Source: an uncultured delta proteobacterium (GTDB lineage Bacteria > Desulfobacterota > Binatia > HRBIN30 > BPIQ01). Taken from it: a stretch of DNA of 64,000 nt. Positions 26,982 to 58,625 of this stretch are shown one piece after another. Where the stretch lies: contig CAVXGR010000005.1 of the NCBI GenBank assembly GCA_963761335.1, positions 229,684 through 293,683 on the forward strand, read 5' to 3'. Positions within the stretch are counted from its first letter, which is position 1; every line of letters starts with the position of its first letter. The notes below the pieces were generated by a model. That model saw only the letters and a program-made list of their open reading frames with translations, made no database searches and was not told where the DNA came from. Made by a program: the position numbers and the translations under genes.

Positions 26982-27941
26982 TCAAGCGGCGCTACGGGCT
27001 CCGTCGAGACAGCGATGCACCTCGACGGTGACGTGCGCCAGATCGCGGTGGCTCGCCAGGAGCTGCTTGTAGTGCGCCGGCTCACGCGGGTGCTGCGTGA
27101 CCACCGAGATGATTGCCGCCAGGTGCTGCGGGCCGACGCGCCACAGGTGCAGATCGGCCATCCGGTTGTCTGCATCCGCCTCGATTGCCTTCCTGATCGA
27201 CTCGTGGCGCTCCTCACCGGCCTCGGCATCGAGCAGCACGCGGCTGGTGTCGCGCAAGAGCCCCCAGGACCAACGAGCAATCACCACCGAGCCGATCAGA
27301 CCGGTCATCGAGTCCATCCATGTCCAGCCGAAGTACTTGCCCGCCGTCAGGGCGCCGATGGCCAGCACCGAGGTCAGCGCGTCCGCCAGCACGTGGAGGT
27401 AGGCACCGCGCAGGTTGTGATCGTGGTGGTGGTGATCTTCGCCGACAGTGGAGAGCGCGTGATCCTCGCGCAGCAGAACGGCACAGACGATGTTGACGAG
27501 AAGCCCGACCCAGGCGACCGCGATCGCCTCGTTGAAGCGGATCGGGGACGGGGTGGCGAGCCGCTCGACGCTCTCGCCGCAGACCAGGATGGCGACCACC
27601 GCCAGGCCGACGGCGCTGGCGAAGCCGCCGAGCGCCGCTACCTTTCCGGTGCCGAAGCTGTAGCGGGGATCGTCCGCGTGGCGCCTGGCGTAGGCATAGG
27701 CGAAGGCGGCGACGCCCAGGGCGGCGGCGTGCGTCGCCATGTGCCAGCCGTCCGCGAGGAGTGCCATCGAGCCAAACGCCAGGCCGGCGACGATCTCGAC
27801 CACCATCATGGTTGCGGTCAGGCCGATGACCCATCGGGTGCGCTGCTCGCCCCGCGTCTTGATGCCGGTTCCGAACGAATGGCGGTGCCGCCAGGGCTCC
27901 GTGGATTCGAGGTGCATGCTTTCCTTCCTTACTTTGCTCAT
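26982..27941 (-). CDS. cation diffusion facilitator (CDF) family metal transporter
   Basis: Six-TM CDF architecture, His-rich loop HHHHDH and a C-terminal cytoplasmic domain. Confidence 0.8.
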   Translation of the reverse strand: MSKVRKESMHLESTEPWRHRHSFGTGIKTRGEQRTRWVIGLTATMMVVEIVAGLAFGSMALLADGWHMATHAAALGVAAFAYAYARRHADDPRYSFGTGKVAALGGFASAVGLAVVAILVCGESVERLATPSPIRFNEAIAVAWVGLLVNIVCAVLLREDHALSTVGEDHHHHDHNLRGAYLHVLADALTSVLAIGALTAGKYFGWTWMDSMTGLIGSVVIARWSWGLLRDTSRVLLDAEAGEERHESIRKAIEADADNRMADLHLWRVGPQHLAAIISVVTQHPREPAHYKQLLASHRDLAHVTVEVHRCLDGARSAA

Positions 27942-27987
27942 ATCGCCCCGAGCCGCAGCCCTCAAGGTCGACACGGGGCACTTGCCG

Positions 27988-30900
27988 TCACGACGCCTGC
28001 GCCGTGCCGCGACCCTTCCACAGCGCGAAGATGGCCGGATAGACGGTCAGCTCCAGCAGGAACGAGGTCGCCAGCCCGCCGACCATGGGCGCGGCGATGC
28101 GGCGCATGACGTCGGCGCCGGTGCCGGTGCTCCACATCACCGGCAGAAGGCCGATGAAGGTGGTGAGCACGGTCATCAGCTTCGGGCGGATGCGCCGCGC
28201 GGCGCCCTCGACGATGGCCTCGCGCAGGTCCGCCGGAGATCGCATCCGGCCCTCCTCCCGGGCGCGCTCGTAGGCGAGCTTCAGGTAGAGCAACATGACC
28301 ACGCCGGTCTCGGCGTCCAGACCGGCGAGGGCGATGAGCCCCACCCAGACGGCGACGCTGGTGTTGTAGCCGAGCAGGTAGAGGAGCCACACGGCGCCGA
28401 TCAGAGAGAACGGCACCGCCGCCAGGACGATCGCCACCTCGGTCGCCGAGCCGGTGTTGAAGTAGAGCAGCAGGCAGATGAGGAAGAGCGTGACCGGCAC
28501 CACCACCTTGAGGCGCTCCTTGGCGCGCTCGAAGTACTGGAACTGACCGGCCCACTCGAGGCGCAGGCCCGCAGGCAGGCGCACCTGGCGGGCGACCACC
28601 TCCTTGGCCTGCGCGACGTACTCCGCGATCGCCCGGTCCCCGGTGTCGACGAAGACGTAGCCCACCAGGCGGCCGCCCTCGCTGCGGATCATCGGTGGTC
28701 CGGTGGCGAACTCGATGTCGGCCACCTGCCGCAGGGGCACCTGCGCGCCTCCCGGAGTCGCCACCAGCACGCGCTCGAGGGCCGTCGGGTCGTCGCGGAA
28801 ATCGCGAGCGTAGGCGACGCTCACCGGGTAGCGCTCGCGCCCCTCGACGGTCTCGGACACCTGCATGCCGCCGATTGCCGTCTGCACCACGTCGTTGACG
28901 TCGGCGACGCGCAGCCCGTAGCGCGCCGCCGCGGCGCGATCGACTTTCACGTCGAGATAGAAGCCGCCGGTGGAGCGGTCGGCGAAGGCGCTGCGCGTGC
29001 CGGGGATCGCCGCAACCGCCTGCTCGATGCGCACCGCGGTGTCCTCGATGGTCGCCAGATCGTCGCCGAAGATCTTGATGCCGAGTGGGCTGCGAATGCC
29101 GGTGGAGAGCATCTCGGTGCGCGTCTGGATCGGCATCCACCAGATGTTCGGCATGCCGGGATAGCGCAGCGCGCGATCCATCTCGGAGATCAGGTCGTCC
29201 CAGGTCATTCCTTGCCGCCACTGCTCCCGCGGCTTGAGCATTACCACCGTCTCGACCATGCCGATCGGCGCCGGATCGGTGGGTGAGCTGGCGCGCCCCA
29301 TCTTGCCGAAGACGCTCATCACCTCGGGGAACTGCTTGAGCTTGCGGTCCATCGACTGCAGCAGCACGCTGGCCTCGCTCATCGACATTCCCGGCGGAGC
29401 GGTCGGCATGTAGAGGATGGCGCCCTCGTTGAGCGGCGGCATGAACTCGCTCTGGATCTGCAACGCCGCCGGAACGGTCAGGGCCACGGCGATCACCGCC
29501 AGGGCGATGACCGAGCGACGGAAGCGCACCACGAAACGGACCACCGGCACGTAGAGGGCGATGAGAATGCGGTTGAGCGGGTTGGCCTCCTCGCCGCGGA
29601 TGCGGCCGCGCACGAAGATGGCCGCCAGCGCCGGGGTGAGCGTGATCGCCAGCAGCGCCGCGAAGCCCATGGAGTAGGTCTTGGTGAAGGCCAGCGGCCG
29701 AAACAGGCGGCCCTCGACCGCCTGCAGGGTGAACACCGGCAGAAAGGAGACGGTGATCACCAGGAGCGAGAAGAAGATGCTCGGGCCCACCTCCTGCATG
29801 GCCCCGATCAGCACCTGCAGTCGGTCGCCGGGACGGCCGACCTCCTCCCAGACCTCGAGCTTCTTGTGGATGTTCTCGATGATGATGATCGAGGCGTCGA
29901 CCATGGCGCCGATGGCCACGGCGATGCCCCCGAGCGACATGATGTTGATGGTCAGCCCCTGGTAGAACATGGGCACGAAGGAGAGCAGCACGGCCAGTGG
30001 CAGGGTGACGATCGGCACCAGAGCGCTGCGCGCGTGCAGCAGGAAGACGAAGATCACCAGGCTGACCACCAGCATCTCCTCGATGAGCGTGTGGCGCAGG
30101 GTGTCGATCGAGGCCTCGATCAGCCCCGAGCGATCGTAGGTGGTGACCACCTTCACGCCTGCCGGCAGCGTCTTCTGCAGCTGCGCCAGGCGCTCCTTCA
30201 CCGCGCCGATGACGCGCAGGGCGTTCTCCCCGTAGCGCATGACGACGATGCCCCCGACCACCTCGCCGCGGCCGTCGAGATCGGCGAGGCCGCGGCGCGG
30301 CGCCGGACCGAGCTTCACCTCGCCGACGTCGCGGATGTAGACCGGGGCGCCCGTGGTCCCGACCTTCAGCGGCACGAGCTCGAGATCCTGCTTCTTCTTC
30401 ACGTAGCCGCGACCGCGCACCATGAACTCGTGCTCGGAGAGCTCCAACACCTGGCCGCCGACCTCCTGGTTCGACTCGCGCACCGCCTGCACCACCTCGC
30501 GCAGGGGGATGCCGAGGGCCACCAGCTTGTTCGGGTCGAGAAGGATCTGGTACTCCTTGCCGAAGCCGCCGACCGAGGCGACCTCGGCGACTCCGGGCAC
30601 GCTCTCGATGGCGTAGCGCAGGTTCCAGTCCTGCAGGCTGCGCAGCTCCTGGAGGTCGAGCGTGCCGCTCTCGTCGACGAGCGCGTACTCGAACACCCAG
30701 CCGACACCCGTGGCATCGGGGCCGAGGACCGGCGTCACCCCCTGCGGCAGCGCATTGGAGACCTCGTCGAGATACTCGAGGACTCGAGAGCGCGCCCAGT
30801 AGATGTCGGTTCCGTCCTCGAAGATGGCGTAGACGAAGGACATGCCGAACATCGACTGGCCGCGCACGTACTTGATGCGCGGCGCCGCCAGGAGGCTTGC

Positions 30901-31110
30901 GGAGATTGGATAGGTGATCTGGTCCTCGACGATGTCGGGGCTCTGTCCGGGCCACTCGGTGAAGACGATCACCTGCACGTCCGACAGGTCCGGTATGGCG
31001 TCGAGCGGCGATTGGCGCATCGACCACGCCCCCCATGCCGCCAGGGCGGCGACGAAGAGCAGCGTGAGAAGAGGGTGCCGCGCGCAGGCGGCGATGACCC
31101 GGCCGATCAT
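27988..31110 (-). CDS. heavy-metal efflux RND pump, CusA/CzcA family
   Basis: 1040 aa. N-terminus MIGRVIAACARHPLLT with conserved HME-RND blocks throughout. The 279-aa upstream extension of the raw ORF is Arg-rich junk, so the start was taken at the internal Met. Confidence 0.9.
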   Translation of the reverse strand: MIGRVIAACARHPLLTLLFVAALAAWGAWSMRQSPLDAIPDLSDVQVIVFTEWPGQSPDIVEDQITYPISASLLAAPRIKYVRGQSMFGMSFVYAIFEDGTDIYWARSRVLEYLDEVSNALPQGVTPVLGPDATGVGWVFEYALVDESGTLDLQELRSLQDWNLRYAIESVPGVAEVASVGGFGKEYQILLDPNKLVALGIPLREVVQAVRESNQEVGGQVLELSEHEFMVRGRGYVKKKQDLELVPLKVGTTGAPVYIRDVGEVKLGPAPRRGLADLDGRGEVVGGIVVMRYGENALRVIGAVKERLAQLQKTLPAGVKVVTTYDRSGLIEASIDTLRHTLIEEMLVVSLVIFVFLLHARSALVPIVTLPLAVLLSFVPMFYQGLTINIMSLGGIAVAIGAMVDASIIIIENIHKKLEVWEEVGRPGDRLQVLIGAMQEVGPSIFFSLLVITVSFLPVFTLQAVEGRLFRPLAFTKTYSMGFAALLAITLTPALAAIFVRGRIRGEEANPLNRILIALYVPVVRFVVRFRRSVIALAVIAVALTVPAALQIQSEFMPPLNEGAILYMPTAPPGMSMSEASVLLQSMDRKLKQFPEVMSVFGKMGRASSPTDPAPIGMVETVVMLKPREQWRQGMTWDDLISEMDRALRYPGMPNIWWMPIQTRTEMLSTGIRSPLGIKIFGDDLATIEDTAVRIEQAVAAIPGTRSAFADRSTGGFYLDVKVDRAAAARYGLRVADVNDVVQTAIGGMQVSETVEGRERYPVSVAYARDFRDDPTALERVLVATPGGAQVPLRQVADIEFATGPPMIRSEGGRLVGYVFVDTGDRAIAEYVAQAKEVVARQVRLPAGLRLEWAGQFQYFERAKERLKVVVPVTLFLICLLLYFNTGSATEVAIVLAAVPFSLIGAVWLLYLLGYNTSVAVWVGLIALAGLDAETGVVMLLYLKLAYERAREEGRMRSPADLREAIVEGAARRIRPKLMTVLTTFIGLLPVMWSTGTGADVMRRIAAPMVGGLATSFLLELTVYPAIFALWKGRGTAQAS

Positions 31111-32720
31111 TGCCAGTGCTCCATCGCCAGCTTGAGCCGGCTCTCGGCGGCGATCAGGAAGTTCCCGGAGGTGACGATGACATCGCCCTCCTGCAGTCCC
31201 GCGGTGATCTCCACCAGATTTTCGGACTTCTGTCCGATCTCGACGCGCTGCGGCTTGAGGCGTCCCTGGCCGAGATCGAGGAAGACGAAGCGGCGCGCAC
31301 CGGCATAGAGGATCGCCTGCTCCGGGACGGTCAGGCGCTCGCCGAGGTCGCGCTGCAGCTCGACGTTGGCGTACATGTCCGGCTTCAGACGGCGGCCGGG
31401 GTTGTCGAGCTCGACGCGTACGCGGCCGGTGCGCGTCGTGTCGTCGAGGTAGGGATAGACGAAGGCGACGCGCCCGTGCAGGACCTCGCCGGGAACATAC
31501 GCCAGGGTGACCACCGCTTCGTCTCCGGGATGCACCAGGGCCAGCTCCGACTCGTAGACCTCGGCCTCCACCCAGACGCGATCCAGGCCGGCGATGCGGA
31601 ACAGCTTCATGCCCGGCTCGACGGCGGCGCCCTCGACGACGTTCTTCTCGACCACGGCGCCGGACACCGGAGAGAGGATGGGAACATACTCGAGCGGCTT
31701 GCCGGAGCGCGCGATCCGATCGATCTGCGCCTCGCCCAGATCCCACAGGCGCAGTCGCTGCCGCGCCGCGCCCACCAGGTAGTCGGCGCGATCGGGTGCC
31801 GAGGTCTTCGCCGCGGCGCGCCGGCTGGCCAGCGCCGTGAGGAGCTCCTGCTGGGTGGCGTAGAGATCCGGGCTGTAGAGGGTGAACAGCGGCTCGCCCT
31901 TGTGCACCTCCTGGCCCGGAGTGTCGGCGTAGAGAGTGCCGATCCACCCCTGATACTTGACGGAGACGTCGGCGAGGCGGGTCTGGTCGTAAACCACCTT
32001 GCCGACGGCGCGGATGGTGATCGTCAGCGGTCGCCGCTGCACCGGCGCCGTGGTGACGCCGATGGTCTGCCGGCGCTGCGCATCCACCATGATGACTCCG
32101 GTCTCCGCCTCGCTGCGCGTCACCGGCACCAGATCCATCGAGCAGATCGGGCAGGTGCCCGGCTTCTGGCTGCGCACCGACGGATGCATCGAGCAGGTGT
32201 AGTAGGCGATCTCGTCACCGCCCGCGGCGGCGTTCTTTCCGTCGTCTGCCGACCCCGTTCCGGTCGATCCGGCGGTCAGCCCGCGACGGCCGACGGTGAT
32301 GCCGTAGTTGGCCTCCGCGGAAGTGCCGCCGGCGGCGATTGCGACCTGCACCGTCCAGCTGCCCCCCATCGGGAAGTCCAGAGCGGCGATGTAGCGCCCG
32401 CCGCCGAGCGGCGTCACCGGACCCTTGCCGCGCATCTCCGACATGGCGCCCATGGCCGGCATCAGGTAGCCCACCTGGATCTGGGCGTTCTCGACTGGAG
32501 CGCCGAGGGCGTCGGTGAGGCGCAAGCGCAGGGCATTTCCCTTTTCCGCGGGCGGATCGGGGCGGATCTCGGCGGCGATGGTGAAGTCCCCCGCGCGAGT
32601 CTCCACGGTGTTGCCGGGGGGGCGGTCGCAGGAAAGTGGCGTCGCCACCAGGGTGAGCATCGACATGAAGCGCGCCAGCGTCGAAAGGCGCGTGAGCGCA
32701 ATTGACGTGAACATCTTCAT
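31107..32720 (-). CDS. efflux RND periplasmic adaptor (membrane-fusion protein), CusB-like, with N-terminal heavy-metal-binding domain
   Basis: YYTCSMHPSVRSQKPGTCPICSMDLVPV heavy-metal-binding motif. Adaptor beta-barrel and lipoyl regions. ATGA overlap with the pump gene. Confidence 0.85.
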   Translation of the reverse strand: MKMFTSIALTRLSTLARFMSMLTLVATPLSCDRPPGNTVETRAGDFTIAAEIRPDPPAEKGNALRLRLTDALGAPVENAQIQVGYLMPAMGAMSEMRGKGPVTPLGGGRYIAALDFPMGGSWTVQVAIAAGGTSAEANYGITVGRRGLTAGSTGTGSADDGKNAAAGGDEIAYYTCSMHPSVRSQKPGTCPICSMDLVPVTRSEAETGVIMVDAQRRQTIGVTTAPVQRRPLTITIRAVGKVVYDQTRLADVSVKYQGWIGTLYADTPGQEVHKGEPLFTLYSPDLYATQQELLTALASRRAAAKTSAPDRADYLVGAARQRLRLWDLGEAQIDRIARSGKPLEYVPILSPVSGAVVEKNVVEGAAVEPGMKLFRIAGLDRVWVEAEVYESELALVHPGDEAVVTLAYVPGEVLHGRVAFVYPYLDDTTRTGRVRVELDNPGRRLKPDMYANVELQRDLGERLTVPEQAILYAGARRFVFLDLGQGRLKPQRVEIGQKSENLVEITAGLQEGDVIVTSGNFLIAAESRLKLAMEHWQ

Positions 32721-34357
32721 CGCGGTTCTCCGTGGTCGGACTGCTGGTGGGTTTCCGCCGTTGTCGGAACGGCGGGGGCGAACGCCGTGCCGGGAAGGCC
32801 GCCGAGGAGGCGGGTGAGCTCGGCCAGACGCCGGTGGAAGTCGGCGAGCGCCTCTTCGTAGCTCAGCTGCACGGCGCGCTGGTTGCGCTCCGCGTCGATG
32901 AGGGCGAGGAAGCTGTTGCCGCCGCTCTCAAATCCGGCGCGCGCCGCCTGCACCTGATCGCGGGCGGCGGGCAGCAGGCGGCCGAGGTAGAGGTCGACGA
33001 TGTGGTGCATCTCCAGCAATCGCGCCGCCGTTTGCTCGACGTCGGAGCGGACGTCGTCAATGAGGCGCTGGCGCTCGCTCTCTGCCTGCTGCAGCTTGGC
33101 GCGCGCCTCGGCTTCGGCGGCGTCGAGACGCCCGCGCCAGATCGGCAGGTTGACAGAGGCGCCAATCATCCAGCGGTGCTCCTCGTCGTTCCACATCGAG
33201 TTGTATGAGCTGGTGAGGCCGAAATCCGGATAGCGCTCCAGCCCGGCCAGCTCCACGGCGGCGCGGCGGCCGCGGACATCGGCGGCGGCCATCGCCAGCT
33301 CCGGTCGCCGTTCGACGGCGAGATCGGCGAGGCGATCGACATCGGTGTGGGCCATCTGCAGCAGCGGGCTCTCGGTGGGCGGCGGCAGCATCTTTGGCGG
33401 CGGCGGCAGCGGCGCCGCATAAGATCGGTGCAGCAGCGTGTTGATGCGGGCGACGAGCACGTCGCGGTCGGTTGCCAGGGTCACCTTGCGGTGCTCCAGG
33501 TGCGCCAGCTCGACCTCGGCCGCCAGCGGCTCCTGCTGCGACAGACGTCCGGCGGCGTACTGGTCGGTGGCGGCGCGCTTGAGCGCGGCGAGCAGGCGGA
33601 CGTGCTCGTCGTTGATCTCGTCGGCGCGGTCGAGAAGGTAGTAATCGTAGAAGAGAAAGGTCGCCGCCAGAGCCGTCTCCAGGCGCAGCGAGTCGTACGC
33701 CTGCCGGCTCGATTCCGCCTCGGCGAGGGCCGCCTCGCCGCGCAGCCGCAGCTTTCCCGGCCAGGGGAGCTTCTGTGAGAGCTCGATCTGCTGGCCGTAG
33801 TCGACGCTGCTCGAGCCGATGCTCAGGGGCGCCAAGCCGTAGGCGAACATCGGATCGTCGAGCGCCGTGGCTTGCGGGTAGCGCGCTACGGTGGCGGTCC
33901 AGGCGCTGCGCAGCGCCGCCAGGCTCGGGTTGCGGCGCAGCACGGCGCGCCGCAGCTCGTCGACGTCGAGCACGGCTTCGCCCTGAAAGAGCGGCGCGTC
34001 ACTGAACGCGGCGCCCCGCCGCGTAGTGAGGAGGCGGGACGCCTCCTCTACAGTGGACGCGGCGTCCCGCCGCGTGGTGAGGAGGCGGGACGCCTCCTCT
34101 ACAGTAGACGCGGCGTCCCGCCGCGTGGTGAGGAGGCGGGACGCCTCCTCTACAGTGGACGCGGCGTCCCGCCGCGTGGTGGGGAGGTGGGACGCCTCCT
34201 CTACAGTGGACGCGGCGTCTCGCCGCGTGGTGGGGAGGCGGGACGCCTCCTCTACTTTGGGCCGCGGCCCGGAGCAGCCGGAACCACCGGCGGCGATGAT
34301 CAGCATCGAGCTCCAGAGCACGCGAGCGATAGGTCGTCGCATGTGCAGTACTCCCAC
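32717..34357 (-). CDS. TolC-family outer-membrane efflux lipoprotein (CusC/CzcC-like)
   Basis: Lipobox (AAGGSGCSG) and paired outer-membrane-factor repeats. ATGA overlap with the adaptor gene. Confidence 0.8.
   Translation of the reverse strand: MGVLHMRRPIARVLWSSMLIIAAGGSGCSGPRPKVEEASRLPTTRRDAASTVEEASHLPTTRRDAASTVEEASRLLTTRRDAASTVEEASRLLTTRRDAASTVEEASRLLTTRRGAAFSDAPLFQGEAVLDVDELRRAVLRRNPSLAALRSAWTATVARYPQATALDDPMFAYGLAPLSIGSSSVDYGQQIELSQKLPWPGKLRLRGEAALAEAESSRQAYDSLRLETALAATFLFYDYYLLDRADEINDEHVRLLAALKRAATDQYAAGRLSQQEPLAAEVELAHLEHRKVTLATDRDVLVARINTLLHRSYAAPLPPPPKMLPPPTESPLLQMAHTDVDRLADLAVERRPELAMAAADVRGRRAAVELAGLERYPDFGLTSSYNSMWNDEEHRWMIGASVNLPIWRGRLDAAEAEARAKLQQAESERQRLIDDVRSDVEQTAARLLEMHHIVDLYLGRLLPAARDQVQAARAGFESGGNSFLALIDAERNQRAVQLSYEEALADFHRRLAELTRLLGGLPGTAFAPAVPTTAETHQQSDHGEPR
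34015..34265. repeat. in-frame tandem repeat, 51 bp x about 5, encoding VEEASRL(P/L)TTRRDAAST in the N-terminal linker of the outer-membrane factor
   Basis: Each DNA unit carries two GC-rich hairpins (GAGGAGGCgggacGCCTCCTC; GGACGCgGCGTCC). Confidence 0.8.
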
Positions 34358-34958: not shown

Positions 34959-35498
34959 TCAGCCGGCGGCTCCTTGGTGGTGGTGCTCTTCTTCCTGCGT
35001 CGCGGCGCGCAGCTCGGACTTCTCCTGCGGGGTGAGGTGCGGCAGGTGGCGGACGAAGGCGACGATCTTCCAGATCTCCTCGTCGGTGTGCGTCGGCGCG
35101 AAGGCGGGCATGCCGGTCATGCGCACACCTTGCCGGATGGTCCAGAAGAGCTCGCCGTCGCTGATCTCCTCGGAGTCCTTCCACAGCTCCGGAGCGTCGG
35201 GATGGAGCCCCTTGGCCAGCTCGGCGGGCTCGACGTCGGGGGCGCCGTGGCAGACGACACAGTTCTCGCGATAGTGGTCGAGGCCGACGGCGATCGCCGC
35301 CGGATCGCCGTCGAAGCGGCTTTGTGCCTGCGGCGCGGCGTGCTCGATCCACGAATCGTAGGCGAGCTCGCCCACGAAGCTCTCGACCGGCCCGGGCTCG
35401 GGCTTCGCCGACATGTCGATGAAGCCGAGCCGAAGAGCCAACAGCGGCGTGCCGATGCAGACGATCACCCCGAAGACGAAACCGGCCCAAAAGCGCAT
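34959..35498 (-). CDS. membrane-anchored mono-haem c-type cytochrome
   Basis: N-terminal TM helix. Single CVVCHG haem site. The downstream Met in GVRMTGMPAF is the likely sixth ligand. Confidence 0.7.
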   Translation of the reverse strand: MRFWAGFVFGVIVCIGTPLLALRLGFIDMSAKPEPGPVESFVGELAYDSWIEHAAPQAQSRFDGDPAAIAVGLDHYRENCVVCHGAPDVEPAELAKGLHPDAPELWKDSEEISDGELFWTIRQGVRMTGMPAFAPTHTDEEIWKIVAFVRHLPHLTPQEKSELRAATQEEEHHHQGAAG

Positions 35499-35599
35499 GT
35501 GCGTTCTCCTTTCTCGCTTCGCCAATTCCAACTGGGGACGCCGAGGCGTCGAGCCGTCCCGTATTGGCCTGCAACCATTGTGGCTGAGACCGTGCGGGA

Positions 35600-36105: not shown

Positions 36106-36579
36106 CTACCCGAGCGCGCCGGAAGCGAACTCCTCGGCGCTCAAGACCTGCACTCCGTAACGCAGCAGGGAGCCGAAGTGGCGCCGATTGTCCGTGACCA
36201 CGACGCTGGCGCCGTTCGCTCGTGCGGTCTGGGCGATGTGAAGATCGTACGCGCGTCCTCCGCTGATCCGATCGGCAACGGCATCGTCGAGCAGGCGCAA
36301 GCGCTCCGAGACAGGCAGGTCGTACACCTCGAACCGCTTGAGGATCTCCTCACGGAGCAGGCCGGCGGCATCCGCTGGGGATAGACGCAGCTCCGCAGGC
36401 AGGCGAGTCGAGACCGAGTAGAACTCCAGGCAGCAGTGCCACGCGGTGGCGGGCTTTCTCACTCGTCCTTCGGCAATGGCTGTCATCACGCTTTGGGAGT
36501 GCACGGCTGCCGGGCCGATGTCGATCAGGCCGGCCAGCAGGATCGTCGTATCGAAGAACACCGGCTTCACCACGGCCAT
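36106..36579 (-). CDS. vapC: PIN-domain ribonuclease toxin, VapC-like
   Basis: PIN acidic residues (VFFDTTIL.., ..VVTDNRRHF). About 157 aa. Confidence 0.7.
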   Translation of the reverse strand: MAVVKPVFFDTTILLAGLIDIGPAAVHSQSVMTAIAEGRVRKPATAWHCCLEFYSVSTRLPAELRLSPADAAGLLREEILKRFEVYDLPVSERLRLLDDAVADRISGGRAYDLHIAQTARANGASVVVTDNRRHFGSLLRYGVQVLSAEEFASGALG

Positions 36580-36851: not shown

Positions 36852-39800
36852 TCAGACAACCGGCTCCGCGGAAGCGGGAGCCGTCGGCGCGCCGTGCGGC
36901 AGGTGCCAACCGCGCCAGACGAAGTAGATGGCGGGGTAGACGACCAGCTCCATGACGAACGAGGTGACGACGCCGCCGACCATGGGAACGGCGATGCGCT
37001 TCATGACGTCGGCGCCGGTGCCGTGGCTCCAGAGAATCGGCAGCAGGCCGGCGAGAATGACGGAGACGGTCATCGCCTTCGGGCGTACGCGCTGCACGGC
37101 GCCGTGGTAGATCGCCTCGCGCAGGTCGCCGAGGGTGCGCAGCATGCCCTTGCTCTGCCACTCATCGTGGGCGACGTTGAGATAGAGCAGCATGACCACG
37201 CCGGTCTCGGCGTCGAGGCCGGCGAGGGCGATCATCCCCACCCACACCGCAATGCTCATGTTGTAGCCGAGGAACCAGATCAGCCAGACGGCGCCGACCA
37301 GGCTGAAGGGCACGGCGAGCAGGACGATGAAGGTCTCGAGCAGGCTCTGGGTGTTCAGATAGATGATCAGCACGATGATCAGCAGGGTGATCGGCAGGAT
37401 CACCAGCAGCCGCTGCTGGGCTCGCTGCATGTACTCGTACTGGCCGGACCAGGTGAGCGCGTAGCCGACCGGCAGAGTGATCTGGCCCTGGGCTTTCGCC
37501 TCGGCCACCGCCTTCTGGGCTCGCTCGACGTAGGTGCCGACGTCGATGCCGCGGATGTCGATGTAGATCCAGGTGTTCGGCCGGCTGTTCTCGCTCTTGA
37601 TGCCCGGAGCTCCCTTGGCGATCTCCATGTGGACGAGCTGCCCGAGGGGAATGTGCTGTCCCATGGGCGTCGGCACCAGGATGTTGTCGAGCTCCTCCAG
37701 GTTGGAGCGCAGCTCGCGCGGGTAGCGCAGGTTGATCGGATAGCGCTCCAGGCCCTCGACCGTGGTGGCCACGTTCATGCCCCCGATGGCGCTGGCGATG
37801 ACGTCCTGCACGTCGCCGAGGGTCAGACCGTAGCGGCCGATCTCCTCGCGGTCGATGGTGAAGTTGACGTAGTTGCCGCCGGCGACGCGCTCGGCGTAGG
37901 CGCTCAGGGTGTTCGGTACGCGCCGCATCACGGCTTCGACCTCCTCGCCGACGCGCTGCAGCGTCGGCAGGTCGGGGCCGGAGATCTTGATGCCCACCGG
38001 GGTCTTGATGCCGGTGGAAAGCATGTCGATGCGCGTCTTGATCGGCATCGTCCAGGCGTTGGTCACCCCGGGGAACTGGACCGCCGCATTGAGGGCGTCG
38101 ACCAGCTCGTCCGGCGTGCGGCGGCGGTGCGCGATCACCTGCCCGCCGGCGTCGGTGATGTCGACCGCCGGCCAGGTGTCCTCGTCGTTCAGCATCACCG
38201 TCGTCTCGATCATGCTCAGCGGCGCCGGGTCGGTGGCGGTGTCGGCGCGGCCGATCTTGCCGAAGACGTGATGCACCTCGGGGAAGCGCTTGATGATCCG
38301 GTCCGTCTGCTGCAACAGCTCGCGCGCCTTGGTGATGGAGATGCCCGGCAGGGTCGTTGGCATGTACAGGAAGTCGCCCTCGTAGAGAGGCGGCATGAAC
38401 TCCGACCCCAGCCGGCTGTAGGGCCACCAGGTGGCCGCTACGGTGAGCGCCGCGGCGCCGATGATGCCCCAGCACAGGGCGCGGTGGCGCAGGATGAACT
38501 CGATCACCGGATGGTACACGGCGATGAGCAGACGGTTCAGCGGATTGCGGTGCTCCGGCACGATGCGGCCGCGGACGAAGTAGCCCATGAGCACCGGGGC
38601 CAGGGTGATCGACAGGAAAGCGGCAGCGGCCATGGAGTACGTCTTGGTGAAGGCCAGCGGCTTGAAGAGGCGCCCCTCCTGCGCCTGCAGGGTGAACACC
38701 GGAACGAAGCTCACGGTGATCACCAGCAGGGAGTAGAAGAGCGTCGGGCCGACCTCGATGGAGGCGTCGCGGATGATCTCCCAGTGCGGCTTGCGGCCGG
38801 CGTCGCGCTCGACGTGCTTGTGGGCATTCTCGACCATGATGATGACCGCGTCGACCATCGCCCCGATGGCGATGGCGATGCCGCCGAGGCTCATGATGTT
38901 GGCGCCGATGCCCTGCGCGTACATGACGATGAAGGCCATCAGCACCGCCATTGGCAGGGTGACGATCGCCACCAAGGCGCTGCGAAAGTGGAAGAGGAAG
39001 AGGACGCAGACCACCGACACCGCCAGCGACTCCTCCAGCAGCTTCTCGCGCAGGGTGTGGATGGAGCGATCGATGAGCGAGGAGCGGTCGTAGGCGACGT
39101 GGATCTGCACGTCGGGCGGCAGGCCCGCCTTCAGCTCCGCCAGCTTCGCCTTGACGCGACTGATGACGTCGCGGGCGTTGGCGCCGTAGCGCACCACGAT
39201 GATGCCCCCGACCGTCTCCCCGGTGCCGTTCCACTCGGCGATGCCGCGCCGCATCTCCGGGCCGATGGACACCGTGCCGAGGTCGCGCAGCAGGATGGGT
39301 GTGCCGTCGGCGCGGGCGCCCACCGCCGCCTCCTCGAGCTCGCGCGGGTCGGTGATGTAGCCCTTGACGCGCAGGATGTACTCGGTCTCCGACATCTCCA
39401 TGACGCGGCCGCCGACCTCGCCATTGGATCGCTGAATCGCCTGCCGCACCTTGCCCAGCGGGATGTCATAGGCGCGCAGCTTCTCGGGATCGACGGTGAC
39501 CTGATACTGCTTGACGAAGCCGCCCACGCTGGCGACCTCGGAGACGCCCTCGGTCGCGGTGAGCTCGTACTTCAGGTACCAGTCCTGGATGCTGCGCAGC
39601 TGCTGGAGGTCGCGGCTGGGGCTGGTGAGGCTGTATATGAAGGCCCAGCCGACGCCGGTGGCATCGGGCCCGAGCGTCGGCGTCACCCCGCGCGGCAGCT
39701 GCCCCTGGAGCTGGCTCAGATACTCGAGCACCCGGCTGCGCGCCCAGTAGAGGTCGGTGCCGTCCTCGAAGATCACGTAGACGAAGGAGAAGTTGAAGAA

Positions 39801-40058
39801 GCTGTAGCCGCGCACCACCTTGGCGTAGGGCACCGACAGCATCTTGGTGGTGATCGGGTAGGTGATCTGGTCCTCGATGATGCGCGGTGCCTGGCCGGGA
39901 TACTCGGTGAAGACGATCACCTGGACATCGGACAGATCGGGGATGGCGTCGAGCGGCATGCGCGGGAGCACGTAGACGCCACCGAGGACGATGAACAGCG
40001 CCAGCAGGAGAACGATGAACTTGTTCTCCAGCGAGAAGCGGATGATGCGGGCGATCAT
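36852..40058 (-). CDS. heavy-metal efflux RND pump, CusA/CzcA family (second copy)
   Basis: 1068 aa. About 60% identity to the 27988-31110 protein by eye (MIARIIRFSLENKFIVLLL.. versus MIGRVIAACARHPLLTLLF..). Confidence 0.9.
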   Translation of the reverse strand: MIARIIRFSLENKFIVLLLALFIVLGGVYVLPRMPLDAIPDLSDVQVIVFTEYPGQAPRIIEDQITYPITTKMLSVPYAKVVRGYSFFNFSFVYVIFEDGTDLYWARSRVLEYLSQLQGQLPRGVTPTLGPDATGVGWAFIYSLTSPSRDLQQLRSIQDWYLKYELTATEGVSEVASVGGFVKQYQVTVDPEKLRAYDIPLGKVRQAIQRSNGEVGGRVMEMSETEYILRVKGYITDPRELEEAAVGARADGTPILLRDLGTVSIGPEMRRGIAEWNGTGETVGGIIVVRYGANARDVISRVKAKLAELKAGLPPDVQIHVAYDRSSLIDRSIHTLREKLLEESLAVSVVCVLFLFHFRSALVAIVTLPMAVLMAFIVMYAQGIGANIMSLGGIAIAIGAMVDAVIIMVENAHKHVERDAGRKPHWEIIRDASIEVGPTLFYSLLVITVSFVPVFTLQAQEGRLFKPLAFTKTYSMAAAAFLSITLAPVLMGYFVRGRIVPEHRNPLNRLLIAVYHPVIEFILRHRALCWGIIGAAALTVAATWWPYSRLGSEFMPPLYEGDFLYMPTTLPGISITKARELLQQTDRIIKRFPEVHHVFGKIGRADTATDPAPLSMIETTVMLNDEDTWPAVDITDAGGQVIAHRRRTPDELVDALNAAVQFPGVTNAWTMPIKTRIDMLSTGIKTPVGIKISGPDLPTLQRVGEEVEAVMRRVPNTLSAYAERVAGGNYVNFTIDREEIGRYGLTLGDVQDVIASAIGGMNVATTVEGLERYPINLRYPRELRSNLEELDNILVPTPMGQHIPLGQLVHMEIAKGAPGIKSENSRPNTWIYIDIRGIDVGTYVERAQKAVAEAKAQGQITLPVGYALTWSGQYEYMQRAQQRLLVILPITLLIIVLIIYLNTQSLLETFIVLLAVPFSLVGAVWLIWFLGYNMSIAVWVGMIALAGLDAETGVVMLLYLNVAHDEWQSKGMLRTLGDLREAIYHGAVQRVRPKAMTVSVILAGLLPILWSHGTGADVMKRIAVPMVGGVVTSFVMELVVYPAIYFVWRGWHLPHGAPTAPASAEPVV

Positions 40059-40063
40059 CGCGC

Positions 40064-41845
40064 CTACTCCCGGCCACCCGCCGCCGGCGTCTTCTCGACC
40101 TGCGACTCCGGCACCGGGATGAGCGACATGCCGCAGATCGGGCACTTGCCCGGCCCGGGGCGGTGCACGGACGAGTGCTCCGGCATCGGGCAGGTCCAGT
40201 AGGCGATCTTCGGCTTCTCGACGTGTCCGCCGCGCTTACGGACCGGCACCAGCTGCATGCCGCAGATCGGGCACCTGCCCGGCTTGTCGTAGAGAATGTC
40301 GGAGTGCTCCGGCATCGGGCACACGTAGAAGAGCTCCCCCTCGCCGGGCGGAGGCGCTGCGGCGCCGCTCTGGCGGGTGGCGTCCTTGATCGGCTGGGCG
40401 CCGCCGACGGTTCCGGGCTCCATGAACTTCACCGCGGCCTCCCGCAGGCGACTCTCGGAATCGAGGAGGAACTGCCCGGAGATCACCACCGTCTCGCCCG
40501 GCGAGAGGCCGGAGAGCACCTGCAGGTAATTGTTGTCGTCGCGCGCCCCGATCTTCAGCTCGCGGGGCTCGAAGTGGCCGGGGCGTGGCATGACGAAGGC
40601 GACGGCGCGCATGCCGGTGCGGATGACCGCCATGTCCGGAACCATGGTTGCCTCGGCGGCGACCTGGCTCACCAGCGACACGGTGGCATACATGCCGGGC
40701 TTCAGCTCGTATCCGGGATTGTGGAACTCCATGCGCACCGGCACAGTGCGCGTTTTGGCTTCGAGATACGGGTAGACGTAGGTAACGCGCCCGCGGAAGG
40801 TCCGGCCCGGCAGGTAGGTGAGCGTCATCAGAGCTTCCTGTCCGAGCTTCACGTAGGGGGCGTCGGACTCGTACACCTGGGCGATCACCCAGACGTTGGA
40901 GATGTCGGCGAGCTTGAAGACGTCGGTGCCGGCGGCGATCTTCTGTCCCTCGACGACGTTCTTCTGGGTGACGATGCCGGTGAAGGGCGCGCGGATGGAG
41001 AGCGTCTTCGTCACCTCGCCGCTCTTCTTCAGCTGCGCGATCTGCTCGGGGGAGATGTCGAAGAACTCCAGCCGCGTGCGCGCGTCGCGCACCAGCGCTT
41101 GCGAGTCGATGCGCGATCGGGGAATCAGTGGCAGGTCCGCCGTCTGCTCGTTGCGCAGCGCCGCGACGTATTCCTGCTGGGCCGAGAACAGCTCCGGCGA
41201 GTACAGGTCGAACAGCGGATCGCCCTTGTGCACCTGCTGGCCGGTCTGATCCACGTAGAGCTTCTCGATCCAGCCGCCCACCTTGGTGGCGACCGCCGCC
41301 AGCGTGGTCTCGTCATAGGCGACGTTGCCGAGGGTGCGGATGCTCTTGTTGAGTGGCGCGCGGATCACCTTGTCGACGCGCACGCCCATGTTCTGCTCGA
41401 TCACCGGGTCAATGCGGATGGTTCCGGCAGAGGCTTCGTCGGCGTACACGGGGACGAGGTCCATCCCCATCGAGTCCTTGCCCGGCTCGCTGTGGGTCTC
41501 CCCGGGAATCATCGACGATTTCCAGTAGAGGGTCTTGCGCTCCGGGGCTGCGGCTTCCGTCCGTTTGATCGGTGGTGACGCCGCCGGCTGGCTGAGACCC
41601 ATGGCGGCGGCGCGGTCCGCGGCCATGGGTTGCAGCTTCATGCCGCACTTCGGGCAGTCGCCGGGATGGTCCTGGACCACCTCCGGGTGCATGCCGCAGG
41701 TGTACCAGGTCCTGGCGCTCTGCGGCGCCGCGCTCGCGTCGACGACGCTCTCCTGGTGCTGCCGCTGCATCCACAGCCAGGCGCTGCCGGCGCCGGCGGC
41801 GAAGACGATACCGGTGAGGGCGATGAGGGAAATGGCGCGCTTCAT
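40064..41845 (-). CDS. efflux RND periplasmic adaptor, CusB-like, with three heavy-metal-binding-domain motifs
   Basis: N-terminal YTCGMHPEV..CPKCGMKL. Two C-terminal copies YVCPMPEHS..CPICGMQL and YWTCPMPEHS..CPICGMSL. Start taken at the internal Met MKRAISL. Confidence 0.85.
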   Translation of the reverse strand: MKRAISLIALTGIVFAAGAGSAWLWMQRQHQESVVDASAAPQSARTWYTCGMHPEVVQDHPGDCPKCGMKLQPMAADRAAAMGLSQPAASPPIKRTEAAAPERKTLYWKSSMIPGETHSEPGKDSMGMDLVPVYADEASAGTIRIDPVIEQNMGVRVDKVIRAPLNKSIRTLGNVAYDETTLAAVATKVGGWIEKLYVDQTGQQVHKGDPLFDLYSPELFSAQQEYVAALRNEQTADLPLIPRSRIDSQALVRDARTRLEFFDISPEQIAQLKKSGEVTKTLSIRAPFTGIVTQKNVVEGQKIAAGTDVFKLADISNVWVIAQVYESDAPYVKLGQEALMTLTYLPGRTFRGRVTYVYPYLEAKTRTVPVRMEFHNPGYELKPGMYATVSLVSQVAAEATMVPDMAVIRTGMRAVAFVMPRPGHFEPRELKIGARDDNNYLQVLSGLSPGETVVISGQFLLDSESRLREAAVKFMEPGTVGGAQPIKDATRQSGAAAPPPGEGELFYVCPMPEHSDILYDKPGRCPICGMQLVPVRKRGGHVEKPKIAYWTCPMPEHSSVHRPGPGKCPICGMSLIPVPESQVEKTPAAGGRE

Positions 41846-43305
41846 GATCTGTTGCTCCCATTCGTCGATTCGGTTGGGGCGGGGGCCGTCGCCGGCTCGA
41901 GGTCGGCGCGCCGCGGCACCTGCACGCCGATCAGCTGGCGCAGGTCGGCGAAGCGCTGCTCCAGCTCCGCCAGGGCGCGGTGGTAGGAGAGCGTGAGGTT
42001 GAGCCACTTGCGCCAGTTCTCGATCAGCGCTGTGAACTCGATGGCATTTGCCTGGTAAGCGGAGTTGGAGGCCTCGATCGCCTGCCAGGCGCGCGGCACG
42101 ATGAGATCGCGGAACAGAAGCGCCTGGCGGTACTGCGTGTCGATCTTTACCAGCGTGTCCTGGAGCTGGAGGAAGATCTGGTTGCGCAGCTCGTCGTACT
42201 CCTCGACCGAGGCGAGCGTCTGCGCGTTGCCCTCGAGGACGCGGGCCCGCAGTCGCTTCCACCAGATCGGCAGGTTCAGGCCCAGCGATAGATTCCAGGC
42301 GTCGTCGCCGGTGCGCACCGGGCTGATGCCCGAGCTGGAGATGGCCGTGTACGTCGTGCCCAGGGTCAGATCCGGATAGTAGTTGAGATGCGCCAGATCG
42401 ACGGCCTCGAGGTCGCGCCGGATCTGGGCCCGCAGTCGCTCCAGGCGCGGGTTCGAGGTGACGGCCCGGTCGATTGCCTGCGGCAGCTTCCACTCCACGG
42501 CGGCCAGCTCGAAGGGGCGGGGCGGGGGCAGCGGCGCGTCCACCGGTCGATTCATCAGGCTGTCGAGCTGCGCCTGGGCCGTGGTGCGTTGCTGCTCGAG
42601 GGTGATGAGGTCGTTGGCCAGCCCGTAGAGCTCGACCTCGGCGCGCAACACGTCCTGCTGCGTCGCCTGACCCGTGCGGTAGCGGGCGGCGGCGACCTCG
42701 CGGATCTGGCCGAGGAGCCTCTCACTCTCGCGGGTGATCTGGATGGAGACCTCGGCGAGGTAGTAGCTGTAGTAGGCCCTCTGCACCTGACCGACGGTCG
42801 AGACCCGCGCCTCGTCAATGCCGTCCAGAGCCATGCGCACCGCCTGCTCGGCGACGCGCCCGCGGGCCGCCAGCTTGCCGGGGAAGGGCAGCTTCTGCGA
42901 CACGCCCACGGAGCCGGCCATCATTCCGGCGGCGGTCTCGATCATGTCGCCGGTGGGCGGGATCAGGGTCAGCATCGGATCGTCGAGCGAGGTCATCTGC
43001 GGGACCTGGTATCCGAGAACCTGGGCCTGGCGGACGGCGCGGCGAATCGCGGGATTCTCGGCGAGGGCGACGCGGACGTAGTCGTCCAGCCCGGCGCCCG
43101 AAGGCAGGGGCTCGACAGGCGGAGGCGCCCCGGCGTGCAGGCTCTGCGCCGCCGTATCGACGACGGCCTGATCGTCTTCGACGGCCGGCTGCAGCGGCGC
43201 CGCTTCGGCGGCGACGCGTCGCTGCAGTTTGCCGTCTACCGCGGCGCAGCCGGTGACCGCCAGCAGCGCCAGCAGGGCGATGAAATGTATCGGTTGTGGC
43301 TTCAC
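41842..43305 (-). CDS. TolC-family outer-membrane efflux lipoprotein (CusC/CzcC-like, second copy)
   Basis: Lipobox LLAVTGCAA. Outer-membrane-factor repeats. 4-nt overlap with the adaptor gene. Confidence 0.8.
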   Translation of the reverse strand: MKPQPIHFIALLALLAVTGCAAVDGKLQRRVAAEAAPLQPAVEDDQAVVDTAAQSLHAGAPPPVEPLPSGAGLDDYVRVALAENPAIRRAVRQAQVLGYQVPQMTSLDDPMLTLIPPTGDMIETAAGMMAGSVGVSQKLPFPGKLAARGRVAEQAVRMALDGIDEARVSTVGQVQRAYYSYYLAEVSIQITRESERLLGQIREVAAARYRTGQATQQDVLRAEVELYGLANDLITLEQQRTTAQAQLDSLMNRPVDAPLPPPRPFELAAVEWKLPQAIDRAVTSNPRLERLRAQIRRDLEAVDLAHLNYYPDLTLGTTYTAISSSGISPVRTGDDAWNLSLGLNLPIWWKRLRARVLEGNAQTLASVEEYDELRNQIFLQLQDTLVKIDTQYRQALLFRDLIVPRAWQAIEASNSAYQANAIEFTALIENWRKWLNLTLSYHRALAELEQRFADLRQLIGVQVPRRADLEPATAPAPTESTNGSNRS

Positions 43306-43490
43306 GACTCCTCCAGCTCGGTTTCCTGCTTTGCACGTCTCCGACGTAGGGGCGGGTTTGCCCAGCCAGGCGATGTGCCAGCGTTGCCCCCCGCCGCCGC
43401 GAAAAGGCGCGGCGGAAAAGACGAGGCGCGCGCGAGCGACGGCTGCGAGTGCAGCCGTTCAGCGCGGTCCCGGCGAAGCGGCTGGAGGAA

Positions 43491-43875
43491 TCAGATCAGG
43501 AGTGTGGAAAGGGCGAGATAGCGGGGCGGGTCGTGGGAGGTGCGGGCGACTGGTGCCGGCAGTACGAACGGCGCAAATGGCGCGAGCCCGGTGGCGAGCG
43601 CCGGCGCCGGGTGCGCCGGCGGAGCGGCGATCGCGTTGCCGTTGCTGCTGGTGACGGTGCGCACGAAGCACTTTCCCGCCTGACAGCAGGCGTGCCCGGC
43701 CGGCATCGGCGCCCGCGCCGGCGCCTTCATCGGCATCCCCGCCTCGGGCGGCCATGGCGCAGCCCTGGTGGCTGGCGGGCCCATCGGCGCAGCGCAGCAG
43801 CCCGTAGGGCACCCAGGCCAGACTCAGGAGCAGAGCGGTCGCGGGGAAGAGATAGCTTCTGACGAGTCGGGCCAT
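43491..43875 (-). CDS. small CC-motif ORF upstream of the second efflux operon, apparently split between two frames (frameshift or error)
   Basis: The signal-peptide part (MARLVRSYLFPATALLLSLAWVPYGLL..C.DG) is in one frame. The HACCQAGKCF..SSNGNAIAAP.. part, which aligns with the 34479-34892 protein, is in the +1 frame. Confidence 0.3.
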
Positions 43876-44269
43876 GTCGCGGAACCGTTGGTGATGCAGG
43901 GAGTGTGCCACTTTTTTCGGCGTTCGTAAACCTGGCTCAGCCAGGCGAGCCTTATTGACAGTGACAGAGACGTGTCCGCAACATTTCCGAATGGCGCGCT
44001 TTTGAGACTCCATAAAGCAACCGGCGTCAGACGGCCTCGGGACAGATTCGCGACCAGCACTCGCCGAGGAACGCATCGCCCAAGGCGCTCATTCTGCGGC
44101 TTGGGCCTGCCGGCTGCGCACGATCCCTCGCACCTCTGATAGCGCACGCCATCCGTCAACGTCGAACGCCCTGCATGTCAGAAGGATGCTGCAGCAGATC
44201 GGCAGAGCCGACAACGCATAGGGCCCTGCCTCTTTCCTAACGGAAGGATTGTGGCTATATACCCCGGCC

Positions 44270-44620
44270 ATGCGCGTCCGCCTGGGCTTTTTCTTGCTAG
44301 CCTGTATGGGCTGGTGTCTCTGCGCGCCCATGGCGGCGATCGCCGCGCAGCCGCCGGGGACGCGGTCTGCAGCGATCGCTGCAGAGGGCGAGCCGCAGAA
44401 CATCGCCTGGGCCCCGCGTACCACCTTTCAGGATCTGGTTCGTTCTCCCGACGAGCATCCGCGCCGCATGGCGCGGGTCGTGGCGGAGCGGCGAACCGGG
44501 ACAGCCCCCGTGGAGCCGCATGGCGGTATCCGCGTCGCTGCCCTTCACCGGAGTTTCTATCCGGCGCGCCGCTGCGTGCAACGGCTGGTGCGCTCGGATG
44601 AAAACGACCCACCCGCCTGA
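44270..44620 (+). CDS. small secreted hypothetical protein
   Basis: Signal peptide MRVRLGFFLLACMGWCLCAPMAAIAA. Acceptable GC3 bias. No recognisable domain. Confidence 0.3.
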   Translation: MRVRLGFFLLACMGWCLCAPMAAIAAQPPGTRSAAIAAEGEPQNIAWAPRTTFQDLVRSPDEHPRRMARVVAERRTGTAPVEPHGGIRVAALHRSFYPARRCVQRLVRSDENDPPA

Positions 44621-44989
44621 TCTTCGGCGTTTCTCACCTCGAGGTAGGACAGAGGAAATGACGCACCAGACGTGTGCGCCGAGAGACGATGCGGCGCCTG
44701 CCCCGGCAGGGCTGCACCAACCGAGGTTCAGGAGAGTGACAGATGTCCACTCATGTGGGTGCGGATCATGGATGAACAGAAACCATCGCCGGAGCCGGGG
44801 CAGCCCGAGCCCAGCGGGTCTGTGCTTCTGGCGCGGACCCTGTTCTTCTTGATCATCTTGCCGGCCATCGTGATCTATCTCGTGAAGCTGTTCACGGGTT
44901 GAAGCGGCTTCGAGGCGGGCGCTCAGGCGCCCGCCCCGGGTCTTTGACGGATTCAGAGGCAAAATAAATCAATCGCAGAGGGATGGTTC

Positions 44990-47149
<2,160 letters not shown>

Positions 47150-58408: not shown

Positions 58409-58625
58409 TCGAAAATCTGTTGGGTGAAGGTCTGGCGGAGTCCCGGCGCTGGGTGGAGGCTTATCGCCCCGGAGGGGCGTAGGCATGTAGCCCCGGGTGT
58501 CAACCCGGGGACTGCGGTTCCGATTGGCCCAGATCAGCGCGCCGGAGGGGCGCAGGAGTAGAGGCCGCGTGAATCACGTCGATGAGCTTCCCACGCACCC
58601 AGCGGTGATCATCGGCGTACAGGCG
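58409..58625. repeat. family-B MITE-like element, 5' portion
   Basis: Above 90% identical to 35621-35855. Confidence 0.7.

Follow-up and report, generated by a model that had tools for sequence, protein, structure and literature searches.

The closest described relatives of the locus reported here are the periplasmic adaptors CusB and SilB of copper and silver efflux pumps and, for one of its domains, the P-type ATPase LpCopA. SilB of Cupriavidus metallidurans CH34 (Bersch 2011; Urbina 2016; 5A4G) combines an N-terminal knuckle that forms an Ag/Cu site with a C-terminal metal module, a CusF-like domain that functions as a metallochaperone (PMC4446572). In a plasmid-borne SilB silver is bound at both the N and C termini, and the additional C-terminal module has been proposed to be a tethered chaperone or a second site (PMC10407283). 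LpCopA's heavy-metal-binding domain (HMBD), solved by nuclear magnetic resonance (NMR), adopts a rubredoxin-knuckle fold built on a three-stranded sheet; it binds Ag+ and Hg2+ via M44, C59 and M61 as seen by NMR and inductively coupled plasma mass spectrometry, and its similarity has been noted both to zinc-binding domains and to the silver site at the N terminus of SilB, in which a Met takes the place of C59 (PMC11970713). In the CusB homologue of Bizionia argentinensis a Cys is found in place of M64 (PMC11213822). Here we analyse a stretch of 64,000 nucleotides (nt) from an uncultured delta proteobacterium (contig CAVXGR010000005.1, positions 229,684 to 293,683), hereafter the window, which contains two metal efflux operons. 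The adaptor of the second operon keeps a predicted CusB/SilB-type N-terminal site of three Met residues (Met3) and carries three HMBDs in addition, one N-terminal and two in tandem at the C terminus, and it is for the C-terminal pair that we propose a role in the capture of Cu(I)/Ag(I).

The second operon (operon 2) consists of three genes, which in the order of transcription are as follows.

41842..43305, minus strand: outer-membrane factor (OMF), CusC/TolC-like (Pfam OEP, two stretches, E=6.1e-38)
40064..41845, minus strand: CusB-type adaptor of the membrane-fusion protein (MFP) family, MFP2, 593 amino acids (aa; MKRAIS...GGRE*), from the open reading frame (ORF) as read and from Pfam, NCBIfam, PDB and fold matches
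36852..40058, minus strand: CusA-type resistance-nodulation-division (RND) pump, 1068 aa (TIGR00914 CusA/CzcA)

The genes are tightly packed, the adaptor ATG sharing 4 nt (ATGA) with the stop codon of the upstream OMF gene, as read at the junction, and the pump ATG lying 5 nt past the adaptor stop codon. The core of the adaptor matched the CusB/HlyD barrel-sandwich domain (Pfam HlyD_D23, aa 165-387, E=1.5e-81), the whole protein scored 153 bits against RND_mfp TIGR01730 (cut-off 94.9) and matched CusB PDB chains at E=7.9e-53, and a Foldseek search with the AlphaFold2 (AF2) model found CusB in the CusBA complex (3NE5_C, E=2.2e-25) as the best structural match of the core. Against the NCBIfam CusB subfamily model PRK09783 the score was 226.4 bits and did not reach the cut-off of 390, and the adaptor is thus CusB-like while lying outside the curated enterobacterial CusB subfamily. 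It has the core domains and fold and the N-terminal three-Met site of a CusB-type adaptor and is encoded together with a CusA-type pump and an OMF. We therefore regard it, on sequence grounds, as a periplasmic adaptor that serves an efflux pump of the CusCBA type for Cu(I)/Ag(I), the metal specificity being a prediction. The OMF-adaptor-RND operon, the core fold, the N-terminal Met3 site, and the Met triad and transmembrane helix 4 (TM4) motif of the pump are all shared with E. coli CusCFBA. Operon 2 differs in that no cusF was detected and in that its adaptor has an extra N-terminal HMBD and two C-terminal HMBDs.

From the N to the C terminus the adaptor is divided as follows.

41753..41842, minus strand: N-terminal hydrophobic helix, aa 2-31 (AF2 helix; K2/R3 and then a hydrophobic run in the sequence)
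41624..41710, minus strand: HMBD-N, CxMHP subtype, aa 46-74, predicted ligands M52, C67 and M69 (Pfam; 8OVL alignment)
41444..41536, minus strand: CusB/SilB-type N-terminal Met3 site, aa 104-134, predicted ligands M112, M126 and M128 (alignment)
40424..41428, minus strand: adaptor core, aa 140-474, with membrane-proximal, beta-barrel, lipoyl and hairpin domains and a C-terminal helix (Pfam, PDB, AF2, Foldseek)
40337..40423, minus strand: Ala/Pro/Gly-rich low-confidence linker, aa 475-503 (predicted local distance difference test, pLDDT, <50 for aa 474-500)
40241..40336, minus strand: HMBD-C1, CPMPxH subtype, aa 504-535, predicted ligands M511, C528 and M530 (Pfam; 8OVL alignment)
40109..40207, minus strand: HMBD-C2, CPMPxH subtype, aa 547-579, predicted ligands M554, C571 and M573 (Pfam, motif scan, alignment, AF2)

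The earlier note on this DNA had described one N-terminal and two tandem C-terminal motifs in the adaptor and had assigned them to the heavy-metal-binding domain family, and both statements are borne out. The Pfam model HMBD (PF19335) matched the adaptor in three separate stretches with a total of 127.5 bits (cut-off 23.6; E=1.7e-37), the best stretch being aa 506-535 in HMBD-C1. The motifs themselves are YTCGMHPEVVQDHPGDCPKCGM in HMBD-N (aa 50-69, nt 41639-41698), YVCPMPEHSDILYDKPGRCPICGM in HMBD-C1 (aa 509-530, nt 40256-40321) and WTCPMPEHSSVHRPGPGKCPICGM in HMBD-C2 (aa 552-573, nt 40127-40192), and a six-frame scan of the whole 64-kb window found a single further copy at nt 32136-32195, in the adaptor of the first operon. 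In an alignment of 76 sequences reaching down to 51% identity none of the Cys and Met residues in the three motifs varies, and the motifs are therefore not due to chance. The same alignment shows further invariant Cys pairs beyond the ligand triads, namely C50/C64, C509/C525 and C552/C568.

The relationship to LpCopA is seen in both sequence and predicted structure. HMBD-N aligned with residues 36-67 of 8OVL/LpCopA (E=4.9e-7) and HMBD-C1 with the same chain (E=1.1e-5), and by these alignments the Met/Cys/Met triads of all three HMBDs are equivalent to M44/C59/M61 of LpCopA. An AF2 model of aa 496-593, built with 35 homologous C-termini, had a mean pLDDT of 82, and the top PDB match of the C-terminal tandem was again 8OVL (probability 0.99, root-mean-square deviation 1.6 A over 32 columns, 47% identity); the weak E-value of this match (0.14) is due to the very short length of the domain. 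As far as the models go, the HMBDs have the three-stranded sheet and rubredoxin-knuckle fold. The adaptor HMBDs therefore share domain family, predicted fold and Met-Cys-Met triad with the HMBD of LpCopA (8OVL), but that HMBD is single, cytoplasmic, N-terminal to the ATPase and regulatory, whereas those of the adaptor are multiple and periplasmic. In the C-terminal CPMPxH copies the conserved His is, moreover, shifted by two residues relative to LpCopA.

A fourth site had been overlooked in the earlier note. The segment aa 104-134, KTLYWKSSMIPGETHSEPGKDSMGMDLVPVY, could be aligned residue by residue to the N-terminal metal sites of SilB (5A4G) and of E. coli CusB, the CusB segments concerned being ERKILFWYDPMYPNTRFDKPGKSPFMDMDLVPKYADE and ERKILFWYDPMYPNTRFDKPGKSPFMDMDLVPKY. 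Among 76 homologues M112 and M126 are present in 75; at position 128, 65 of them have Met and 10 have His. In a collinear alignment of the two adaptors of the window (42% identity over 375 aa) the Met3 site is paired precisely with the one HMBD that the operon-1 adaptor has, and the coordinates of the NCBIfam CusB profile agree with this placement. By alignment, Met3 is thus the Cys-free counterpart of an HMBD, and each protomer of the operon-2 adaptor is predicted to have four sulfur sites, three HMBDs and the canonical Met3. While the operon-1 adaptor and the Bizionia CusB homologue both have a Cys-containing knuckle at the canonical CusB site, the operon-2 adaptor keeps Met3 at that site and adds HMBDs elsewhere.

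The full-length AlphaFold model of the adaptor (mean pLDDT 82) gives the order helix, disorder, HMBD-N (pLDDT 79-96), disorder, Met3 knuckle, confidently modelled core, helix, linker and the two C-terminal HMBDs. The N-terminal helix would serve as a membrane anchor or signal sequence, with the remaining protein in the periplasm. The core ends in a conserved C-terminal helix (aa 458-474, SGQFLLDSESRLREA), after which the modelled linker of about 27 residues is consistent with a flexible tether for the C-terminal HMBDs. In adaptors of this kind the membrane-proximal domain is composed of C-terminal elements together with an N-terminal strand (PMC4446572). Since this domain is made of the termini of the chain, all of the accessory domains would be tethered on the inner-membrane side of the pump, close to its periplasmic entry cleft. 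The suggestion that the extra domains act at the periplasmic exit therefore has to be revised, the C-terminus leaving the membrane-proximal domain beside the entrance of the pump (AF2 model; PMC4446572).

Given that the tether seems flexible, that the ligands are conserved and that SilB offers a precedent, we propose, with a probability of roughly 45%, that the C-terminal HMBDs are tethered periplasmic modules for the capture and hand-off of Cu(I)/Ag(I). The pair would bind Cu(I) or Ag(I) through its Met-Cys-Met triads, and the ion would then pass to the N-terminal site of the adaptor, to the Met triad within the periplasmic cleft of the CusA-type pump, or to both. In doing so the pair would take the role of free CusF in E. 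coli, or that which a fused CusF-like domain has at the C terminus of Cupriavidus SilB. It is the binding of metal by these HMBD copies, the direction of transfer and the replacement of CusF that we infer. The operon-2 adaptor shares with the Cupriavidus SilB both an N-terminal knuckle and a C-terminal metal module, and with the plasmid-borne SilB the additional C-terminal module. The module of SilB is a single CusF-like beta-barrel, whereas that of the operon-2 adaptor consists of two Cys/Met HMBD knuckles in tandem, each about 30 residues long, and no Pfam match to the CusF family was found in the adaptor. The adaptor therefore lies outside the SilB-type, CusF-fused family, although a SilB-like way of working is conceivable.

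Several points weigh against capture and hand-off by the C-terminal HMBDs. The first concerns the chemistry of the domain. In the oxidising periplasm the CxxC pairs may form disulfides, which is a problem for every model in which these domains bind metal, and the Cys, His, Cys and Cys residues resemble a structural zinc ribbon (PMC11970713), the adaptor scoring 20.9 bits against the Pfam profile Zn_ribbon_TFIIB (cut-off 22). It could thus be argued that these residues bind Zn(II) or form disulfides merely for folding, and that the HMBDs are an assembly or contact module unrelated to the transported metal. The fold is indeed like that of zinc-binding domains, with ligands that align to C42, H45, C56 and C59 (PMC11970713), and the zinc-ribbon matches in Pfam, weak as they are, point the same way. 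Nevertheless, we consider this explanation very unlikely, as the two Ag+-binding Met residues of LpCopA are invariant in every copy and a pure zinc ribbon needs neither of them, the HMBD family is almost confined to metal-handling proteins, and the Cys-free version of the knuckle in CusB/SilB binds Cu/Ag with three Met residues.

The second group of points comes from the systems that have been studied. The HMBD of LpCopA, the only one studied so far, is cytoplasmic and has been read as a sensor for an autoinhibitory tail and not as a delivery chaperone (PMC11970713), and for Cus/Sil the model currently favoured is that of a switch, with no funnelling of metal into CusA by the adaptor itself (PMC10407283). 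This leads to the main rival of our proposal, namely that metal on the HMBDs is not supplied to the pump and that their occupancy alters the conformation of the adaptor or its contacts with the pump, the pump opening only when periplasmic Cu/Ag is high. With additional HMBD copies the response would become steeper or more sensitive. The sensing role of the LpCopA HMBD, which relieves autoinhibition, and the sensor function proposed for the N-terminal domain of SilB (PMC11970713) are precedents for such a mechanism, as is the preference for a switch in CusB/SilB (PMC10407283), and the HMBDs are tethered right beside the membrane-proximal domain that contacts the pump. A fixed regulatory interface is, on the other hand, difficult to reconcile with the long low-confidence linker, and the variation in copy number from one to six on an otherwise conserved core is explained more easily by capacity than by a defined allosteric contact. 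We therefore regard a sensor or switch as rather unlikely, though still ahead of the structural zinc ribbon and of the buffer considered below.

The remaining points lie in the searches. In favour of tethered capture and hand-off, the CusF motif (H..W..M.M) was not found in the 64-kb window or in about 8 kb around each of 80 homologous loci, which were kept from 336 related loci in species-representative genomes (one genome per species). A tblastn search of the window and these 80 loci gave a best E of 0.68. The absence of CusF is to be read with a reservation, which counts against the proposal, since it stands on a motif search and on tblastn with a CusF query, both applied to the flanking DNA. 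A literature search for HMBD together with CusB found nothing on C-terminal HMBDs of adaptors, and the matches to a search for PF19335 were confined to work on a plant protein.

The distribution of the layout bears on the question of capacity. Among the best 120 database homologues, 116 have a C-terminal HMBD in one to six copies, the combinations of N-terminal and C-terminal copies including 1+2 (66 homologues), 1+3 (15) and 1+4 (14), with a maximum of 1+6. Two to four C-terminal copies were present in 62 of the 64 loci that were parsed for HMBD copies out of the 80 kept from the 336. The loci belong to Myxococcota, Binatia, Sumerlaeota, Planctomycetota, Verrucomicrobiota, Lentisphaerota, Nitrospinota and Acidobacteriota metagenome-assembled genomes (MAGs), and the nearest relatives, at 66-72% identity, are found in Myxococcota, Binatia and deltaproteobacterial MAGs. 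Of the 80 loci, 56 have the OMF-MFP-RND order in full, and most of the others have a partial version of it. Tandem C-terminal HMBDs had been called unusual. Given their presence in nearly all of the best homologues and parsed loci, across several phyla, and given that the C-terminal domain of SilB was already documented, the word holds only relative to the few characterised model systems. Uncultured bacteria of soil and water commonly have this layout, which is a modest, experimentally unstudied variant of adaptors with extra metal-binding domains.

The subtype of the HMBD depends on its position, CPMPxH accounting for 238 of 276 C-terminal copies and CxMHP for 108 of 111 N-terminal copies. 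Since the CPMPxH subtype is position-specific, the pattern points to a tandem duplication of one ancestral C-terminal copy, the products of which were then conserved. A conserved subtype combined with a copy number of one to six would fit selection acting on the capacity of a capture array. In many homologues the last HMBD is followed by a His-rich tail (HDHAH, HEHEHSH; e.g. P0008-P0060), and the adaptor of the window is without such a tail.

Repeat arrays of variable copy number, the His-rich tails and the occurrence of tandem HMBD arrays on unrelated proteins also speak for another explanation, in which the array sequesters Cu(I)/Ag(I) at the surface of the inner membrane as a periplasmic buffer, without directed hand-off. 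Up to 24 predicted sites per pump would then be available, assuming six adaptor protomers of four sites each, a stoichiometry that we take over from the E. coli CusBA complex. Such stoichiometric buffering by a subunit of a membrane complex would provide little capacity, however, and the array is tied genetically to an efflux adaptor within a conserved OMF-MFP-RND operon, as the 56 loci of full order show. A mere buffer is for these reasons quite improbable.

Returning to tethered capture and hand-off, the proposal can be widened, although only tentatively and with more doubt than belief. The CPMPxH HMBD arrays of one to six copies may represent a distinct class of tethered Cu(I)/Ag(I) chaperone that replaces CusF in those lineages of Myxococcota, Binatia, the phyla of the Planctomycetes-Verrucomicrobia-Chlamydiae group and Sumerlaeota in which no CusF was found beside these operons, with copy number tuning the capture and with Met3 being a Cys-free descendant of the knuckle. 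If this were true, bacteria would have a second, independent answer, beside the fused CusF domain of SilB, to the problem of bringing periplasmic Cu/Ag to a CusA-type pump, and the answer would consist of a module some 30 residues long that lends itself to multiplication. The Met-only site of CusB and the Cys/Met HMBD of P-type ATPases would then be a single family of modules employed on both sides of the membrane. The layout could be of practical use in predicting which uncultured bacteria of soil and water resist copper and silver. What is generally understood of heavy-metal RND efflux would be unchanged.

Searched against 1.84 billion cluster representatives, a profile of the C-terminal tandem matched 7355 with E<=1e-3, and 993 with E<=1e-10. 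As judged with local hidden Markov models, 60 of the top 150 representatives are adaptors, with HMBD arrays that are N-terminal, C-terminal or both. Stand-alone tandem-HMBD proteins, represented by 56 of the top 150 with a length of <=250 aa, were considered as free chaperones resembling CusF and were then dropped as evidence because at least six of them are clearly C-terminal fragments of adaptors and most of the others are indistinguishable from fragmentary gene calls. Fusion proteins are also among the best matches to the profile (P0124, P0136, P0179, P0219, P0176 and P0150, and P0121). Within a sample of 10 proteins examined with Pfam, tandem-HMBD matches of 730-940 aa combine 4-7 HMBD repeats with a partial Complex1_49kDa domain (NuoD/NiFe-hydrogenase large-subunit-like), and one further match is fused to Oxidored_q3 (NuoJ-like).

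The first operon (operon 1) lies downstream of operon 2 on the same strand.

27988..34357, minus strand: operon 1, whole (Pfam, NCBIfam, motif, alignment)
32717-34357, minus strand: OMF of operon 1
31107-32720, minus strand: adaptor of operon 1, with a YtkA-like domain, one HMBD (aa 173-200) and then the core
27988-31110, minus strand: CusA-type RND pump of operon 1

That this adaptor has a single HMBD, as stated previously, was borne out by the motif scan; what had gone unmentioned is the additional YtkA-like domain (PF13115, aa 48-126, E=1.6e-14, plus a weak FixH match). Within it lies a Met-rich loop, YLMPAMGAMSEMRG (nt 32433-32462), which makes this a second, different candidate for a metal-binding accessory domain. 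Read against the alignment described above, operon 1 has swapped the classical CusB Met3 site for an HMBD, and operon 2 has kept Met3 and added one HMBD ahead of it and two behind the core.

The two pumps are of the same type. Against TIGR00914 (CusA/CzcA, cut-off 701) the operon-2 pump scored 1158 bits and the operon-1 pump 1132, and the operon-2 pump scored 1180 bits to E. coli CusA compared with 513 to ZneA. The TM4 motifs are IAIAIGAMVDAVIIMVEN in operon 2 and IAVAIGAMVDASIIIIEN in operon 1, both conforming to AIGAMVDA..EN, which we take to be the CusA-type pattern as opposed to the DFG..DGA..VEN of divalent-cation pumps in the heavy-metal efflux (HME) classes. Both pumps also have Met at the positions of CusA M573, M623 and M672 (residue list from PMC11213822), the mapping assuming an inferred offset of 7 residues for the tag in the PDB chains. 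Both operons are therefore predicted to encode CusA-type Cu(I)/Ag(I) exporters, and a divalent-cation (Czc-type) role, which was considered for either operon, was rejected on the CusA signatures in both pumps. The earlier note had suggested that the operons may differ in substrate or affinity. A difference in substrate class finds no support, given the CusA-type TM4 motif and the M573/M623/M672 equivalents of both pumps. The two adaptors do differ in their accessory equipment, operon 1 having the YtkA-like domain and one HMBD and operon 2 three HMBDs and Met3, and a difference between the operons in affinity or capture capacity is possible. Two peculiarities of the operon-2 pump may be added, an insertion of 14 aa, AVDITDAGGQVIAH, which lies between the equivalents of M623 and M672, and a content of 19 His residues compared with 5 in the operon-1 pump.

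Other genes surround the two operons. Directly downstream of the operon-1 pump lies a CDF (cation diffusion facilitator) cation-efflux gene (26982-27974, minus strand), the space between the operons holds genes for a cytochrome c (34959-35531, minus strand) and a PIN-domain protein (36106-36579, minus strand), and an H+-pyrophosphatase gene (44990-47149, plus strand) lies upstream of operon 2. The intervening region of about 1.6 kb upstream of the operon-2 OMF gene (43306-44950) contains no ORF with a coding-type G+C content at third codon positions (GC3); its two longest ORFs gave no match in Pfam, and the region gave none in Rfam. Its local G+C content falls to 0.55-0.62, the average of the window being 68%. 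Further away, at 58465-58510 on the minus strand, Rfam gave a match to the Acido-Lenti-1 small RNA (RF01687) with 40 bits (gathering score 37; E=1.3e-5).

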